From the NCBI GenBank assembly GCA_900767645.1, contig CAAFZY010000005.1, positions 28,986-92,985 of the forward strand: a stretch of DNA of 64,000 bases, written 5' to 3'. The notes under the pieces were generated by a model. It ran no database searches. It saw only the letters and a program-made list of their open reading frames with translations, and was not told the origin of the DNA. The translations under genes and the position numbers were made by a program. This document shows, in pieces, positions 15,298-35,265 of the stretch; the first letter of the stretch is position 1, and each line of letters starts with the position of its first letter. The DNA comes from Alphaproteobacteria bacterium (lineage in GTDB: Bacteria; Pseudomonadota; Alphaproteobacteria; RF32; CAG-239).

Positions 15298-15557
15298 GGT
15301 ATACCTTAAAATATTGATTAAAATTAGTGTGATAGTATAACTTTTGCGTTTTAAGTCAAGGGAGATGTTAAAAAATTAAACAAATTAAAGGTTTTTTAAC
15401 AAAGGTGCGGATATGCTCCGTGGTGAATGTATTGCAAAGTCTTTATTTTAAGAAAGATATATATCTTGCACTTATGACTAAAGATAGGCTTGTTTAGAGG
15501 GCTGTTTTGCAGTATAGTTTAACTTGTAAACAAGAATATTTTTTAGGGGAAAATATT

Positions 15558-16211
15558 ATGAAACACATTAATGAAAACGGTCGTTCCATGGTTGAAATGC
15601 TCGGCGTGCTTGCTATTATCGGCGTTTTGTCAGTAGGCGGTATTGCTGGTTATTCAAAAGCTATGAACAAATATAAAATCAACAAAACTACCGATCAGGT
15701 TTCAATGCTCGTTGCTAACCTTCGTACTTTGTTCTCTTCACAGGGTAACTATGCCGGTTTGACCAATGCTCAAGCTAAAAAATTCGGTGTTGTTCCGAAT
15801 GATATGTACACTTCAGTATCAGGTGACAGTATTAAAAACGCTTTCGGCGGCGATGTTACTATTGCTGCTGATAAAGCAAGAAACGGCGATGCCAGCAGCA
15901 ATGAAGCTTTCACCATCAGATATGACGGTTTGTCTTCAGAAGCTTGCGTTACTGTTTCTACCGGTGACTGGGGTTCAGGTCAGGCTTCCGGCTTGATTGC
16001 TCTCGGTGCAGGTGAAACAGCAACTTTGACTACTGCAATGATGACCGCTTTAATGACAGATGGCGGAACTCCGGCAGCTGCTGCTAAAGTAGTTACAGCG
16101 CAACCTGGTGATGCCAACGTTCCGACTCCGATTACCGTAAGCCAAGCTGTTGCCGCTTGTGATGGTGGCTCTAACAACTCTTCTTACTCTGTAATGTGGA
16201 AGTACTACTAA
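15558..16211 (+). CDS. type IV pilin-like protein, paralog 1
   Basis: Prepilin-type N-terminus NENG|RSMVEMLGVLAIIGVLSV with Glu at +5. An RBS (AGGGGA) precedes the ATG at 15558. Confidence 0.65.
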   Translation: MKHINENGRSMVEMLGVLAIIGVLSVGGIAGYSKAMNKYKINKTTDQVSMLVANLRTLFSSQGNYAGLTNAQAKKFGVVPNDMYTSVSGDSIKNAFGGDVTIAADKARNGDASSNEAFTIRYDGLSSEACVTVSTGDWGSGQASGLIALGAGETATLTTAMMTALMTDGGTPAAAAKVVTAQPGDANVPTPITVSQAVAACDGGSNNSSYSVMWKYY

Positions 16212-28752: not shown

Positions 28753-28918
28753 GGTTCTTTGCAGAGGTATTATAAAAGGCACAAGTTTTATAAAAGGTGC
28801 CTGTTTACAAAATTACAAAAGGTGGCGGATTTTCCCCACCTTTTGGTGTTTTAAAAAACTTAAGGGAATTTTTATAAATACACAGTATCGTTATAATTGT
28901 TTAACGAAAGGAACAACT

Positions 28919-29830
28919 ATGGATAGGCAAGTAATTGAAATTATGAATGATGGCTTTATGCTGTCATTGCACCGAGGTTTTATTGTAGTTGAAAATAAAG
29001 AGCAGCAAATTAAACATGAAGTTCCGCTTGATAATGTGCTTGCGTTGGTGCTATCGGCCAACAATGTGGTGGTTTCAAAAAATATTATAAATGCAATTTG
29101 CGAGCAGGGCAGAAATGTTATTTTTTGTGATAAGACTTACCTGCCTTCCGCAATTACTATGCCATATACCGGACATTGGCTGATTGCTCCGCGAGTTAGG
29201 CAGCAGGTTGAATGCTCAAAACCATTACAAAAAAACTTATGGAAAAGTATTGTTCAGCATAAAATTTTGAATCAAGCTTTGGTGTTGGAATATTTTTTTC
29301 CGCAGCATGCCAATATTGAACGATTAAAACAATTATCAAAAGCAACGCTAAGTGATGATGCCAGAAATAATGAGGGAATCGCAGCGTCTATTTATTTTAA
29401 ATCATTATTCGGAAAACATTTTGTGCGCGACCGTCTTAATAATGATGTCAATATTTTGCTTAACTATACATACACGGTATTGCGCGCCGTTGTGGCCAGA
29501 GCAATTGCCGGAAGCGGATTATTGCCATATTTAGGGCTTAAGCATTGCACAAAGTCTAATCCGTTGCCGTTGGTTGATGATTTAATTGAACCGTTCAGAG
29601 CAGTGGCAGATAAAATTGTGTTTGAAGAGTTAAATAAGTTGGTGGATATAAGCAATATTGAATTAACTCCTGAAATTAAGCGCAATTTGGCAAAAGTTAT
29701 TACATATTCGGTGCAAACGGCTAAAGGCTGTATGTCATTAAATGATGCGCTTTGTGATTTTGCCGGTACTTTAGTTGCCAGTTTTGAGCAAAAGAAAGTA
29801 GCGTTAAAATATCCCGATATTTTGTTTTAA
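28919..29830 (+). CDS. cas1: CRISPR-associated endonuclease Cas1 (type II)
   Basis: FCDKTYLPS..., EGIAASIYFKSLFGKHFVR and LPYLGLKH motifs. The start was chosen at ATG 28919 (RBS AAAGGAAC) rather than at the ORF-track start 28739. Confidence 0.85.
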   Translation: MDRQVIEIMNDGFMLSLHRGFIVVENKEQQIKHEVPLDNVLALVLSANNVVVSKNIINAICEQGRNVIFCDKTYLPSAITMPYTGHWLIAPRVRQQVECSKPLQKNLWKSIVQHKILNQALVLEYFFPQHANIERLKQLSKATLSDDARNNEGIAASIYFKSLFGKHFVRDRLNNDVNILLNYTYTVLRAVVARAIAGSGLLPYLGLKHCTKSNPLPLVDDLIEPFRAVADKIVFEELNKLVDISNIELTPEIKRNLAKVITYSVQTAKGCMSLNDALCDFAGTLVASFEQKKVALKYPDILF

Positions 29831-29945
29831 ATAAAATAATGGGGGTAACTAAAGTCGCCCCCTCATCTTACGGCATTTTCAGCCTTATTATATATGTGTT
29901 GACCGTCTAATTAATCTCTGAAAAATAAGCCAACTTATATAACAA
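29831..29945 (-). ncRNA. predicted tracrRNA
   Basis: On the minus strand there is a TTGACA-16-TATATA promoter (29979-29952). It is followed by a 24-nt anti-repeat (UCAGAGAUUAAUUAGACGGUCAAC) perfectly complementary to repeat nt 7-30. A nexus-like AAGGCUGAAAAUGCCGU and a GGGGG...CCCCC hairpin plus U-run terminator follow, ending next to the cas1 stop. Confidence 0.6.
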
Positions 29946-30031
29946 TATTAGTATATAAAAAATTTAATTGAATTGTCAATTAAAATATTGTACCGTTGCT
30001 TATATTTCTATTAAAATTATAGGAGCTTGCT

Positions 30032-33000
30032 ATGAAATATTGTTTAGGACTTGATTTAGGCGTTGGCTCAATCGGTAGCGTGGTTGTGGAATTAGATAAA
30101 AATAATAATCCTGAAAATATTGCAGATGCCGGAGTGCGGATTTTTGAGGTATCGGAGGGCGCAGAAGAAAGGCGAACAAAACGCACGGCGCGTAAAAATT
30201 TAATCAGAACAAGAAAACGTTTAGAACTTTTAGCACAAAAATTGTATGAAAATAATTTATGGGTTAGTGCGAATCCTGAAGGCACAAATAATTTAAAATC
30301 AAAATCTCCTTATAAAATTCGTTATGATGCTTTAAATGGTAAGTTGGAAAATCAAAATTATATCGGGCGAGCAATTTTGCATTTGGCGAAACATCGTGGT
30401 GCCGGTTTTGTTTCAGCCGCTGAAGAAATGGAAGAAGAAGTTTTAGAAGAAGGCGAAAAATCTAAAGCTAAAAAATCTTCTTATGACATGATGCTTTATC
30501 ATTTAAAAGAAACAAATTCCAGAACTGTCGGTGAGTTTTTTTACAATAAAATAATCTCCGGTAAAGGAAATGATAAAACGGTTCGTCAGAAAAAATATGC
30601 CATTGAAAAGAATATTATAGATTACGCAATTCCGCGCTATTTGGTAAAAGATGAGTTCAATCAAATTTGGAATAAACAAGCCGAATTTTATCCACAGATG
30701 AAAAAAGAAAATTTAAAGAAAGAAATTTACGATATTTTGTTTTATGAACGTCCGGCAGCACCATACGCAACCGGTAAATGCATTTATTTCAGGGATGAAG
30801 ACCGCCTGCTAAAAGCGCACCCTCTTTCAGAGATGCGCCGTATTTATGAGGAAGTCAACAACATTCGTATTTTAAATGATATGAGTAAAAGAAAATTAAC
30901 CTTGGAAGAAAGAGATTCTATTATTAATGAGCTTTTGCTAAAAGGCCAAAATGCAGGTAAACAGGCAATCAAAAAATTGCTTAATTTGTCTGCGCAACAC
31001 AAAATTTCTTTGGTTGATGACAGAGTAATTAAAGCCTATTTATATTCTCGTCCTGAATTTGCAAATAACGAATATTTACAAAAGATGAATGAAGACGAGC
31101 TTTCATCTTTTATTGAGTTTTTGTCAGAACCAAAAATATCACAGGATAAAAATGGCCGTTTATACAATGAAGATTCGTTAATTGAGTATCTTAAGCCAAT
31201 TCTGAAAATTGATGACGAAAAAGAAATCGGCAACCTTTTAACCAAACTGCCCAAAGGGAGAGGAATGTTAGGTATAAGCGCCACAAAAATTATTCTGGAA
31301 AAATTAAAAGAAGATGTATTAACACATCGTGAAATTACCGATAAATTAGCCGAAACAGATAAACGATTTATGGCAGAGGAAGAAATAGCCCGCCAAAATC
31401 AGGGAAAATGTTTTCAACTTCCGTATTACGGGGAGATCTTGCAAACAGATACGGCTCCGCTTCCGCCTTTAATGATAAATAACAACAAGAGCCTTAACCA
31501 TGACGAGATAAAATGGGGTAAAATAGCCAATCCTGCCGTGCATATGATTCTCAATCAAATTCGCTTAGTTGTTAATGAAATTATCAAAATTTACGGCAAG
31601 CCTTACAATATCAATATTGAACTTGGTCGTGATGTCGGTATGTCAACAAAGAAGAAAAAAGAATTTGAAAACAGACAAAAACAAAATGAAAAACTTAATG
31701 AAGAGGCTAAAAAATATTTAAAAGAGCATAAAATTGTCATAAACAGTAAAAACATTTTAAAATACAAATTGGCCAAAGAGCAAGGCTGGAAAGATGCCTA
31801 TAATCCGACACAAAATATTTCTTCCGTATTTACGGGTATGGAAGTTGAGCATATTATTCCCCAAGCCAAAGGCGGAACAGATACATATAACAATCTCTGT
31901 TTAGTTAATAGCAATGACAACTTAAATAAAGGCGACCGATATGCCTATGAATATTTTGCAGAAACAAAAACACCGGAAGAAATCAGAGAAATTCTAAAAA
32001 ATGCCCGTTCCCGTACCCCTGACAAGTCTTGGCGTTTTGAAGCTGATGCGCGAGAAAAATATGAAGAAAGCGGCGATAAAGAAGAAAGTACCCGTTATTT
32101 GACGGATACCCGCTATGTTGCAAAAATGGCGGCACGTTATTTGCGAGCTATTGTTGATTGCCCTGATTGTGATGAAGTTATGGACAATCGTATTTTGGCA
32201 GTCAAAGGCGGGCAGACTGCAGAGTTGCGTAAGCGTTGGGATTTGCAAGGCTTGGAATATGATTTAATGGGCTTAAATATCCCGAGATATATTGATTGCG
32301 CGCCATATTGGCGGGAGTTGGATACCGGCGAAATAATTGACGGAGAGCAAAAGCCGGATATTGATGGTAATTGGAAATTTTATAATTGTGTAAAGAATCC
32401 TGAATGGTCGCCAAAGCCACGTATTGACCACAGACATCATGCGATGGATGCTATAACAGTTGCTTGTGCAAACCGTGGATTAATTCAGAAAATGGCAGAA
32501 GAAAATGATATTAACAAAATTCATTATCCGTTGCCTTTAACTTCTGTTGAATCTGTAGCAGATTTTAGAAGAAAAGTTATTTCCTGTCTAAAAGATATCA
32601 AAATTTCGCACAAACCTGATCACAGTAAGGCTGGACAATTACATAAAGAAACAGGCAGAACTGTTTTGTGTCAAAACCCTGATGATCCAAATTGTTTAAT
32701 CACTGTTTATTCTCGCAAAATTTTACAGGTGGTAAAATCTGCTAAAGATTTAACTAAACTGCTCATTCCAGAAACAATCAAGAATGAATGGCATGAGGAT
32801 ATTGCAGAATATAAAGCCAAACAGGCTAAGCTAGTACAAGATTTTGAACTTTATATGAATACGGCGGAGCAAATTTTAATTGCCGAAAATGAACAGGGTG
32901 TGGCAGAAGGTAAAAAGGAAATTAAAATTACTGAAGGAAGAATTTTGTTAAAGGCGTTCCGTATTATTCAAGATAAAGGCCTATGGAAAGGTGATAAATT

Positions 33001-33499
33001 TAGATGCTATGAAAATAATTCTTCTTTGGTTTATATCAAAAAACATGGTGTGGCTTATGAAGGGCGAAATAACCATTGTGTAGATTTTTACGTTAAAGAT
33101 GGTAAAGTCGGTTGGGAGGTTATTAAACGATTTGATGCAAATCAGCCTGATTTTGTTCCGCAATGGAAAAAAGACGGAGGAAAACTTATTTGGTCAGTTC
33201 AACAACGCGATATGTTGGAATTAGATACTCCTGATGAGTGGAAATCATATACCGATAAAGAGCGCTGTTTAGCTAAAGTAAAAAAGTTCAGCGATGGAGA
33301 ATTTAATATTGATTATATGGCTGACGCTCGTATGACATCGCCAAAAGATAAAAACTTAAAATATATGTTTGTTAATACTTTAAGAAAGGGGCTGGCATTT
33401 TTACTTCAGCATAAAGCGCGGAAAATAGAACTTACACCGTTTGGCAAAGTAAAGAAAAAACATAAGGTGTTGTGGAATGGCACGAAGACAGCGGCTTGA
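30032..33499 (+). CDS. cas9: Cas9 (type II-C-like, 1155 aa)
   Basis: RuvC-I GLDLGVGSIGSVVV. Arg-rich bridge helix. RuvC-II NINIELGRD. HNH VEHIIPQAKGG...NLCLVNSNDNLNKGDRYAYEYF. RuvC-III HRHHAMDAITVA. An RBS AGGAG precedes the ATG. Confidence 0.95.
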   Translation: MKYCLGLDLGVGSIGSVVVELDKNNNPENIADAGVRIFEVSEGAEERRTKRTARKNLIRTRKRLELLAQKLYENNLWVSANPEGTNNLKSKSPYKIRYDALNGKLENQNYIGRAILHLAKHRGAGFVSAAEEMEEEVLEEGEKSKAKKSSYDMMLYHLKETNSRTVGEFFYNKIISGKGNDKTVRQKKYAIEKNIIDYAIPRYLVKDEFNQIWNKQAEFYPQMKKENLKKEIYDILFYERPAAPYATGKCIYFRDEDRLLKAHPLSEMRRIYEEVNNIRILNDMSKRKLTLEERDSIINELLLKGQNAGKQAIKKLLNLSAQHKISLVDDRVIKAYLYSRPEFANNEYLQKMNEDELSSFIEFLSEPKISQDKNGRLYNEDSLIEYLKPILKIDDEKEIGNLLTKLPKGRGMLGISATKIILEKLKEDVLTHREITDKLAETDKRFMAEEEIARQNQGKCFQLPYYGEILQTDTAPLPPLMINNNKSLNHDEIKWGKIANPAVHMILNQIRLVVNEIIKIYGKPYNINIELGRDVGMSTKKKKEFENRQKQNEKLNEEAKKYLKEHKIVINSKNILKYKLAKEQGWKDAYNPTQNISSVFTGMEVEHIIPQAKGGTDTYNNLCLVNSNDNLNKGDRYAYEYFAETKTPEEIREILKNARSRTPDKSWRFEADAREKYEESGDKEESTRYLTDTRYVAKMAARYLRAIVDCPDCDEVMDNRILAVKGGQTAELRKRWDLQGLEYDLMGLNIPRYIDCAPYWRELDTGEIIDGEQKPDIDGNWKFYNCVKNPEWSPKPRIDHRHHAMDAITVACANRGLIQKMAEENDINKIHYPLPLTSVESVADFRRKVISCLKDIKISHKPDHSKAGQLHKETGRTVLCQNPDDPNCLITVYSRKILQVVKSAKDLTKLLIPETIKNEWHEDIAEYKAKQAKLVQDFELYMNTAEQILIAENEQGVAEGKKEIKITEGRILLKAFRIIQDKGLWKGDKFRCYENNSSLVYIKKHGVAYEGRNNHCVDFYVKDGKVGWEVIKRFDANQPDFVPQWKKDGGKLIWSVQQRDMLELDTPDEWKSYTDKERCLAKVKKFSDGEFNIDYMADARMTSPKDKNLKYMFVNTLRKGLAFLLQHKARKIELTPFGKVKKKHKVLWNGTKTAA

Positions 33500-33518
33500 A
33501 ACTTTAACCGGATGGTCT

Positions 33519-33839
33519 ATGATGTGGATAATATGTATGTTTGATATTCCGGTCAGGACTAAAACCGAAATGCGTAAAGCGACTCGTTTTCGTAATTTGC
33601 TTTTGGATAATGGTTTTGTTATGAAGCAGTTTTCGGTTTATATAAAACCGGTAAAAAGCTTAAATGTTGGACAAACAGTCACGAAAAGCCTTGCAAAGTA
33701 TATTCCGGATAACTCTTCTGTCTCTTTTTTATATATTACCGATAAACAATATTTAATGACGGAAAATTATTTGGGAAAAAATTATGAAGAGAATGAAGAA
33801 GAGAATCGCGAAAAAAATGGGCAATTATTGCTTTTTTAA
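33519..33839 (+). CDS. cas2: Cas2
   Basis: MMWIICMFDIPVRTKTEMRKATRFRNLLLDNGFVMKQFSVYIK matches the Cas2 beta1-alpha1 pattern. The ORF-track start 33477 would overlap cas9 by 23 nt, so the ATG at 33519 is preferred. Confidence 0.8.
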   Translation: MMWIICMFDIPVRTKTEMRKATRFRNLLLDNGFVMKQFSVYIKPVKSLNVGQTVTKSLAKYIPDNSSVSFLYITDKQYLMTENYLGKNYEENEEENREKNGQLLLF

Positions 33840-33865
33840 GGGTGTCTTTTAGCGTTTTTATAATA

Positions 33866-33900
33866 AACAAAAGCCTTGAAATGTTGTCATTTCAAGGCTT
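33866..33900 (-). terminator. hairpin terminator in the CRISPR leader, oriented for minus-strand (pre-crRNA) transcripts
   Basis: gccttgaaat-gttgtc-atttcaaggc stem-loop. On the minus strand it is followed by UUUUGUUUAUUAU. Confidence 0.5.
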
Positions 33901-33913
33901 TGCGCTATTAGAT

Positions 33914-34740
33914 AGCATATCAGAGATTAATTAGACGGTCAACTATAACTATTTCGCCCTCAATGTATCGATATTTTGTAGCATATCAGAGATTAATTAG
34001 ACGGTCAACTATAACGCTTGGTTCTGCGACGTCTCAAGGACATTTAGCATATCAGAGATTAATTAGACGGTCAACTATAACACAGTACCGGCAATGTTGT
34101 ATAGTCGTCACAGCATATCAGAGATTAATTAGACGGTCAACTATAACTGCCACCCATGAGCCCGCTTGCTATTTCTAGCATATCAGAGATTAATTAGACG
34201 GTCAACTATAACTAGCTGTCAATAGCTTTTTTATTATTTTCCAGCATATCAGAGATTAATTAGACGGTCAACTATAACTAATTTACTGTGCTCTTTTTGC
34301 TGAATAAAAGCATATCAGAGATTAATTAGACGGTCAACTATAACAGAAGTATGACGAGTACTCAGAATATTATAAGCATATCAGAGATTAATTAGACGGT
34401 CAACTATAACACAAGCTGCAGGATAGGCTTATTCAGCAAAGCATATCAGAGATTAATTAGACGGTCAACTATAACATGTTTTGCTCAATAACAGTTTTGT
34501 TAACTAGCATATCAGAGATTAATTAGACGGTCAACTATAACGCTAAAATGTTAGCGTTGGTCTTTATTGACAGCATATCAGAGATTAATTAGACGGTCAA
34601 CTATAACTATCCGGACATATTATACATCATGTCACCAAGCATATCAGAGATTAATTAGACGGTCAACTATAACAATTTTCGGACGGTGTCGGCGCATAAG
34701 TGAAGCATATCAGAGATTAATTAGACGGTCAACTTATAAC
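33914..34740 (-). CRISPR. CRISPR array of 13 copies of a 36-bp repeat and 12 spacers (ten of 30 bp, two of 29 bp). The repeat on the crRNA strand is GTTATAGTTGACCGTCTAATTAATCTCTGATATGCT.
   Basis: Repeat copies start at 33914, 33980, 34046, 34112, 34177, 34243, 34309, 34375, 34440, 34506, 34572, 34638 and 34704. The cas-distal repeat (34704-34740) carries a 1-nt insertion. The repeat begins with GTT in minus orientation and is complementary to the tracrRNA anti-repeat. Confidence 0.95.
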
Positions 34741-34755
34741 CAAGTATTGTTATAG

Positions 34756-34866
34756 CCTTTCGCTTGTAGTCGGTCTGGCTTGTAAGCTCTGCCTAAAGGC
34801 AATCGCTAACTGCGCTGCGGTCACTTGTTTTGTAAGCTCGCTGCGGTTGCTGTCGCTTTCCTTGCT
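34756..34866. repeat. partial copy (3' half) of the ~185-bp repeat element whose full copy is at 56968-57150
   Basis: cctttcgcttgtagtcggtctggct...gctgcggttgctgtcgctttcc is about 90% identical to 57031-57141. Confidence 0.7.
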
Positions 34867-35005
34867 CGCGAACAAAACTACGCTTTCGGCGATAAAAAAG
34901 CAGATAACAGCTTTTTTATCTTGAAACTCACTCCGTGAGTTCGAACCTCTACTTTCACTCATTATTTACAACAAAACCCGCCACAAGGGCGGGTGTTGTT
35001 GTAAA

Positions 35006-35026
35006 TGGCGGATAGAGTGAGATTAT
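35006..35026. repeat. duplicated 3' end of tRNA-Ser (aatggcggatagagtgagatt), att-like direct repeat
   Basis: A 21-nt exact copy of 35172-35192 lies about 150 bp from the tRNA. It is preceded by a GC hairpin. Confidence 0.65.
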
Positions 35027-35105
35027 TCCGCTGCGCTTCATTCACTGTGCTCATCGGCTATCGCCGACCGGCGTACTCCCGTCCGCCTTTCGCTTGTAGT
35101 CGAAC
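35027..35105. repeat. partial copy (5' part) of the ~185-bp repeat element
   Basis: attccgctgcgcttcattcactgtgctcatcggctatcgccgaccggcg...cctttcgcttgtagtcg is about 90% identical to 56968-57047. Confidence 0.7.
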
Positions 35106-35174
35106 TCACTTCTCGTGAGTTCTTATCTTCTGAATATGCCATTACAAAAAGCCCCATAAAGGGGCTTTTTGTAA

Positions 35175-35265
35175 TGGCGGATAGAGTGAGATTCGAACTC
35201 ACGGTACCCTTTGGAGGTACACACGATTTCCAATCGTGCGCCTTAGACCGCTCGGCCATCTATCC
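35175..35265 (-). tRNA. tRNA-Ser (anticodon GGA)
   Basis: 91-nt cloverleaf GGATAGATGGCCGAGCGG...UUGGAAA anticodon loop...long variable arm...GTTCGAATC...GCCA, reconstructed from the reverse complement. Confidence 0.85.

Follow-up and report, generated by a model that had tools for sequence, protein, structure and literature searches.

Type II-C CRISPR-Cas9 loci typically carry their genes in the operon order cas9-cas1-cas2 (PMC3737331), and their arrays are read in the direction opposite to the cas operon (PMC3737331), with the CRISPR RNAs (crRNAs) of Neisseria and Campylobacter starting from promoters that lie inside the repeats (PMC5965381). The stretch of DNA analyzed here, 64,000 nucleotides (nt) of an alphaproteobacterial assembly (GCA_900767645.1, contig CAAFZY010000005.1, positions 28,986 to 92,985) and referred to below as the window, holds at 28919-34741 a locus made up, in this order, of cas1, a trans-activating crRNA (tracrRNA) on the minus strand, cas9, cas2, and a CRISPR array (13 repeats, 12 spacers). 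Judged from its sequence and that of its relatives, this is very probably a functional type II-C adaptive immune system in which the position of cas1 upstream of cas9 is derived.

The locus resembles that of Neisseria meningitidis (Nme) in its 36-nt repeats, 30-nt spacers, catalytic motifs, and lack of csn2 and cas4, and it shares with Neisseria II-C loci a tracrRNA upstream of cas9, an antisense array, and a predicted extended -10 element at the 3' end of the repeat (PMC3737331, PMC5965381). It departs from the cas9-cas1-cas2 operon of Neisseria in the position of cas1, upstream of the tracrRNA, and in a cas2 that abuts cas9 or overlaps it, and each of its repeats also carries a -35-like TTGACC. 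About one-third of the window Cas9 aligns with the Nme protein (RuvC-I, the bridge helix, and part of REC, and then RuvC-II and HNH). With Campylobacter jejuni (Cj) and C. coli, it has in common a minimal II-C gene set and an antisense array; the C. coli locus adjoins a tRNA gene, and gain and loss of the Campylobacter locus have been ascribed to allelic exchange bounded by conserved genes on both sides (PMC4607530), whereas gene order there is canonical, Cas9 is much smaller at 984 aa, and CjCas9 matches the window protein at E=9e-26. The next-nearest Cas9 proteins in genomes, 26-32% identical, belong to a sister clade from Treponema, Arenicellales, and Cloacimonadota (L063-L082), which has related 36-nt repeats ending in ...CAAC and an array after cas2 but is ordered cas9-cas1-cas2 in every locus.

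Cas genes, guide RNAs, and array

The first-pass annotation, made from the sequence alone, had called a complete type II-C locus with intact cas1, cas9, and cas2 genes in the order given above, and had proposed a profile search as a check. All three products exceed the curated NCBIfam cut-offs: Cas1 matches the type II Cas1 profile TIGR03639 at 242 bits (PADLOC Cas1_II, 287 bits), Cas9 scores 485 bits on TIGR01865, for which the cut-off is 100, and also matches the PADLOC Cas9 model, and Cas2 matches TIGR01573 at 59 bits (PADLOC Cas2_II, 117 bits). The gene order is likewise borne out by the coordinates of the open reading frames and the anti-repeat (Table 1). Alignment to the Streptococcus pyogenes Cas1 (4ZKJ) places the Cas1 catalytic residues in conserved NxEG, GLKH, and EPFR motifs. 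In Cas9, the RuvC, HNH, and bridge-helix motifs are intact, as annotated: D8, E530, H607, N630, H803, and D806 are invariant in a nine-member family alignment, D8, H607, and N630 align opposite Nme D16, H588, and N611, and the Arg-rich bridge helix begins at residue 47. The annotated contact between cas2 and the cas9 stop codon takes the form of a 23-nt overlap or of a start ~20 nt past the stop, depending on the cas2 start chosen, and gene callers have used both starts in sister strains. Cas1, cas9, and cas2 are the only cas genes in the 5.9-kb cassette that holds the locus, with neither csn2 nor cas4 there, again in agreement with the annotation.

The II-C assignment made in the first pass is also supported. 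The nearest solved Cas9 structures are all II-C (Nme1 and Nme2, E=1e-44; Cj, 9e-26), II-A proteins match more weakly, and no II-B protein matches; the nearest genomic relatives outside the clade are minimal cas9-cas1-cas2 loci. The features that define type II are present, namely a split RuvC domain with an inserted HNH, a tracrRNA with an anti-repeat, and type II cas1 and cas2 genes with an array. The typical II-C operon order is found neither in the window nor elsewhere in the clade; loci are currently classified by the genes they contain and by the phylogeny of Cas9, and a deviant gene order is no bar to II-C. The C-terminal 330 residues of Cas9 have no sequence match in the PDB, and the protospacer adjacent motif (PAM) is therefore not predictable.

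Table 1. Coordinates of the features of the locus within the window
Feature	Position	Strand	Details
Left cassette border and cas1 upstream region	28857..28918		conspecific contigs diverge from ~28857-28878
cas1	28919-29830	+	303 aa; type II Cas1; E152/H209/E224 present
tracrRNA (predicted)	about 29829..29942	-	~110 nt; between cas1 and cas9
tracrRNA U tract	29840-29829	-	overlaps cas1 stop codon
tracrRNA terminator hairpin	29862-29841	-	G5/C5
tracrRNA nexus hairpin	29884-29872	-	AAGGC...GCC
tracrRNA lower stem	29892-29887	-	6 nt
tracrRNA bulge	29897-29893	-	5 nt
Anti-repeat	29921-29898	-	24/24 complementary to CRISPR repeats
Predicted tracrRNA promoter	29950..29979	-	TTGACA-18-TATACT; 11/12 consensus matches
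cas9	30032-33499	+	1155 aa; RuvC D8, E530, H803, D806; HNH H607, N630
cas2	33477-33839	+	120 aa from ATG 33477, or 105-106 aa from internal Met 33519/33522
cas2-to-array spacer, putative leader	33840..33913		74 nt; conserved
Leader hairpin	33870-33901	-	14 pairs and T-rich tail; terminator-like
CRISPR array	33914..34741	- (crRNA sense)	13 repeats, 12 spacers; repeat GTTATAGTTGACCGTCTAATTAATCTCTGATATGCT in crRNA sense
Right cassette border	34742..34762		conspecific contigs, whatever their cargo, realign from CGCTTGTAGTCGG onward

An antisense tracrRNA between cas1 and cas9 had been annotated, and it can be traced as a fully complementary anti-repeat followed by nexus and terminator hairpins. 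The first pass had counted its placement among the non-canonical traits of the locus; this applies to the position of cas1 only, as a tracrRNA upstream of cas9 is usual in II-C (PMC3737331). The predicted tracrRNA promoter is the top sigma-70-like site in a 7-kb region and lies 28 nt upstream of the anti-repeat. Folding z-scores are -4.3 for the tracrRNA alone and -10.2 for a crRNA-tracrRNA chimera, which in computed folds takes the standard shape of a Cas9 guide. No tracrRNA family in Rfam was matched. A homolog lies upstream of cas9 in 57 related loci, ~130 nt away and on the opposite strand, and its anti-repeat covaries with the repeat across species: L042 has three matched changes, L032 and L037 have two each, and L045 and L054 have many. 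Of the 14 pairs predicted in the nexus and terminator hairpins, 8 have undergone compensatory changes.

The array comprises 12 perfect copies of a 36-nt repeat, where none would be expected by chance, and a degenerate terminal repeat (34705-34741) with one inserted T; its spacers (n=12) are 29-30 nt long. Because the tracrRNA lies on the minus strand, the crRNAs are probably transcribed from that strand as well. All 13 repeats carry TTGACC-17-TGnTATGCT on the minus strand, with the -10 ending on the last base of the repeat, and these motifs would serve as promoters inside the repeats; TGATATAAT is frequent in the repeats of related loci. An interval of 73-75 nt separates cas2 from the array, which has the same orientation, in 43 of 52 related loci, and the hairpin within this interval recurs at the same position in 45 related loci, with compensatory changes in its stem. 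A conserved TTATGCTATTAGAT-like motif follows the hairpin and adjoins repeat 1. The hairpin is a candidate minus-strand terminator for array transcripts, and together the predicted tracrRNA promoter, repeat promoters, and terminator are consistent with published II-C biology (PMC3737331, PMC5965381).

A system built in this way would operate along ordinary type II-C lines. The sigma-70-type promoter would drive a minus-strand tracrRNA of ~110 nt, while the -35 and extended -10 elements borne by each repeat would start short minus-strand crRNAs 6-8 nt inside the adjacent spacer, ending in the next repeat. The repeat part of each crRNA would pair with the tracrRNA through an upper stem of 24 bp and a lower stem of 6 bp with a bulge between them, and Cas9, guided by the dual RNA, would use its RuvC and HNH domains to cut matching DNA adjoining a PAM. 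The hairpin between the array and cas2 would keep array transcripts from continuing antisense into cas2 and cas9. Cas1 and Cas2, although separately encoded, would add spacers together with Cas9, and would most probably do so at the end of the array nearest cas2, beside the conserved 74-nt leader. The 5.9-kb unit as a whole occupies a strain-variable defence slot beside tRNA-Ser and is probably exchanged through the conserved flanks.

Position of cas1 across the Cas9 clade

Cas1 and cas2 are nearly always neighbors, since their products act as one integrase complex. A scan of a genome collection gave 80 loci, ~60 of which encode a Cas9 that is 40-91% identical to the window protein, and nearly all of these relatives are uncultured Alphaproteobacteria of the gut or rumen, from samples of human, Hadza, chicken, deer, and goat origin, under names that include Candidatus Scatocola and 'uncultured Azospirillum'. 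This narrows the host-associated alphaproteobacterium suggested in the first pass to an uncultured alphaproteobacterium of the gut lumen, and it contradicts the accompanying remark that CRISPR-Cas is rare in such hosts, as this Cas9 family is present in dozens of species-level genomes of the host group.

In all 54 related loci where the region is visible, cas2 directly follows or overlaps cas9, and in none of those that can be viewed does cas1 lie between the two. Cas1 is found instead in one of two main places. Beyond the array and on the opposite strand in 37 loci (layout A), its stop codon falls inside, or a few dozen bases from, the truncated terminal repeat; upstream and on the same strand in six loci that include the window (layout B), its stop abuts the tracrRNA terminator. 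One further related locus has an inverted cas1 between cas2 and the array. In another, L062, a cas9 fragment runs into an inverted cas1. The non-canonical order reported in the first pass is thus real in the window, but it is not a peculiarity of this locus, being one of two arrangements across the Cas9 clade.

On a tree of Cas1 proteins, a single group made up of the layout-B members from the window, L009, L019, L050, and L053 lies inside layout A, and the distant layout-B locus L051 branches apart from the other B proteins. Because the layout-B proteins, L051 excepted, sit inside layout A, the order in the window is, on this tree, a derived rearrangement of a clade-wide layout of tracrRNA, cas9, cas2, array, and inverted cas1. 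A switch between layouts by recombination of the anti-repeat with a CRISPR repeat, each an inverted copy of the other, was considered and rejected, because such an event would split the tracrRNA, and the tracrRNA is intact upstream of cas9 in both layouts. The locus is also a mosaic. Its cas1, its tracrRNA, the first 100 nt of its cas9, and its cas2 are 93-99% identical to L009, whereas the body of cas9 (30127-33426) is 60-80% identical to L009 and 86-95% identical to layout-A loci such as L003; by these identities, the window cas9 gene is a recombinant between layout-B-like flanks and a layout-A-like body. In layout-A loci where the cas1 stop lies within the truncated terminal repeat (e.g., L010 at ~12250, L024 at ~11138, L025 at ~10785, and L035 at ~10319), there is no room for a terminator or a leader between cas1 and the array, and the cas1 mRNA must therefore run into the array in the crRNA sense.

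It is conceivable that the relocation of cas1 broke its co-expression with cas2, which would leave a locus that is competent for interference and defective in adaptation, with a frozen array. In the window, 3.6 kb of DNA and the convergent terminator of the tracrRNA lie between the two genes, and two related loci (L030, L042) have a tracrRNA, cas9, cas2, and an array with no cas1 within ~5-6 kb of flank on either side. We nevertheless consider this very unlikely, because the catalytic residues are kept in both Cas1 and Cas2, because the separation of cas1 from cas2 is conserved over dozens of species, and because conspecific strains with the same arrangement hold wholly different sets of spacers. 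In six conspecific strain lineages, with Cas9 proteins 98-99% identical and the same chromosomal context, the arrays have 12, 12, 11, 2, 1, and 1 spacers, none of them in common except between duplicate samples. Since sister strains with nearly identical Cas9 proteins share no spacers, adaptation appears to work, with rapid turnover of spacers, despite the separation of cas1 and cas2. The conserved leader on the cas2 side and the degenerate repeat at the far end point to the cas2-proximal end as the most likely site of spacer entry.

The cassette slot and its surroundings

The variable cassette spans ~28857-34762 (5.9 kb) between flanks that are 96-99% identical among conspecific contigs. A look-up of the neighboring response regulator, which yielded loci L092-L100, brings to four the kinds of cargo found in this one slot: the window system, two types of canonical cas9-cas1-cas2 locus, and a methyltransferase system. 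The canonical loci encode a Cas9 of 1012 aa or 1197 aa that is just 25-27% identical to the window protein and carry a different repeat, ATTATAGCACATCTAATTTGGAAAGGAAGCTATAAC, and the methyltransferase cargo consists of an N6-methyltransferase, a type I specificity subunit, and a protein of 204-206 aa. In L093, which has the methyltransferase cargo, a degenerate terminal repeat of the window type is left at the right border, equivalent to 34705-34762, and L095 and L099, with the same cargo, keep there two or more repeats belonging to the other CRISPR type. To judge from these repeats, the leftover terminal copies are scars beside new cargo. The slot thus resembles known defence hotspots with interchangeable cargo between core genes, in that it holds any of three type II loci or a methyltransferase system, and differs from them in these repeat scars. 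No empty site was seen in the response-regulator look-up, and the flanking 95-aa protein always had cas1 adjacent to it; the gene for this protein, upstream of cas1, is part of the conserved flank, and its product has no defence-family match.

Horizontal acquisition had been suggested in the first pass, along with a lower GC content than that of the surrounding genes. The GC check confirms the latter: the locus has 35.4% GC and the remainder of the window 41.9%, and no other 5.8-kb stretch in the 64 kb is as low. This low GC content and the alternative cargoes between conspecific flanks support the former. The further suggestion of a tRNA-Ser integration hotspot stands only in part. A tRNA-Ser(gga) gene does lie nearby (35175-35265, minus strand; 430 nt from the array), and the slot is variable, but insertion by an integrase finds no support, as the locus lacks an integrase gene and has no att copy to its left.

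That the locus might be the cargo of an integrase-driven island or other mobile element, which it would serve in competition between elements and for which the 3' end of tRNA-Ser was the insertion site, would fit the closeness of the tRNA gene, the perfect duplication of 21 nt from the 3' end of that gene (35004-35024 against 35173-35193), the low GC content, and the presence of a tRNA gene just past the array in three of the six cas1-upstream loci. Against it, no gene for an integrase, transposase, or conjugation function was found in this cassette or in the alternative ones, and the copy of the tRNA end lies just 169 nt from the tRNA, on the tRNA side of the locus; a search to the left of the locus for further copies, as would flank an island with att sites, found none. 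The borders of the cassette coincide instead with conserved chromosomal flanks, as homologous replacement predicts, and related loci lie in unrelated contexts. We regard an island of this kind as very improbable. The four cargo kinds between the same conserved flanks make a defence hotspot the best reading of the slot, with cargo replaced by recombination through the flanks. Because there is no integrase and because the borders match the conserved flanks, cassette exchange is favored over integrase-mediated insertion, and the window cassette was probably gained by such recombination, as allelic replacement through flanks has been proposed for Campylobacter II-C loci (PMC4607530).

Several further observations concern the surroundings. 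The stretch between the array and tRNA-Ser (34742-35193) holds tRNA-derived debris in which the number of units varies among strains; it includes a T-arm-like inverted match (34933-34949) and a second repeat, 27 nt long, with copies at 34755 and 35085, and both 21-nt copies of the tRNA 3' end adjoin terminator-like hairpins. The tRNA genes of the three layout-B loci (Arg, Ala, or Ser; L051, 11324-11400; L053, 11489-11564; and the window) lie 50-430 nt beyond the array with their 3' ends facing it. Elsewhere in the window, a 303-aa protein encoded among housekeeping genes at 12248-13159 matches the helical domain of the 5-hydroxymethyl-dU DNA kinase (PF18723, 166 bits), a kinase family linked to phage DNA hypermodification, and a large autotransporter gene upstream of the locus (21037-25242) has been called at lengths of 1399, 1454, and >1900 aa among conspecific strains.

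Spacer targets and implications for the clade

Some of the data weigh against a functional immune system with the mechanism outlined above. Both the window and the related loci come from metagenome assemblies. Searches with the 12 spacers turned up no protospacer among isolate phages or plasmids or in six IMG/VR scans: the whole array gave a single weak match of 85% to isolate phages and plasmids, and six spacers searched as 24-mers gave zero matches in IMG/VR. The -10 element of the window repeats matches the consensus at just four of six positions (TATGCT), and the conservation of the -35 is not independent evidence for a promoter, because the same part of the repeat is conserved for pairing with the tracrRNA. 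A comparison of strains gave no spacer polarity, as no spacer occurs in more than one of them.

A local search of 785 unique spacers from the clade against all of the collected DNA gave a single match outside of arrays, between spacer 4 of the sister strain L087 and window positions 15416-15445 (29 of 30 positions, the mismatch being the third base from the repeat-proximal end), which fall between genes, upstream of one for a PilS/Bundlin-like type IVb pilin (15507-16211). A main role other than phage defence, in limiting DNA exchange between strains or regulating genes, has been proposed likewise for Neisseria II-C and Francisella Cas9 and could draw on this match near a pilin-like gene and on the lack of phage protospacers, but we hold it to be the least probable alternative of all, as one match among so many spacers, with a mismatch in the presumed seed, is slight, and as gut alphaproteobacterial phages are so sparse in databases that absent matches say little.

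A functional type II-C immune system therefore remains our interpretation of the locus. Its mechanism is that of an ordinary type II-C system, and the understanding of CRISPR-Cas9 is unchanged by it; what is new is the clade-wide tie of cas2 to cas9 with a detached cas1, the derived form of this arrangement in the window, and the interchangeable defence cassettes. Neither the cas9-cas2 order with a detached cas1 nor the repeat sequence was found described in the literature, although this is weak evidence of novelty, as subscription journals were mostly not covered. It is possible, if rather doubtful, that the adaptation module of the clade has been rewired, with Cas2 translationally coupled to Cas9 and Cas1 independently placed and expressed. 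If so, read-through from cas1 in layout A could tie the supply of Cas1 to crRNA production, or the rewiring could reflect a partnership of Cas9 and Cas2 in spacer selection that is absent from canonical type II systems.

The window Cas9 is a new ortholog with a divergent PAM-interacting region and a guide RNA that is well defined by covariation. The locus also illustrates the swapping of defence cassettes in an uncultured gut bacterium, with three Cas9 systems and a methyltransferase system sharing one slot, and the clade to which it belongs offers a natural test case, both for the way in which type II systems coordinate the expression of their adaptation genes and for the role of Cas9 in spacer acquisition.

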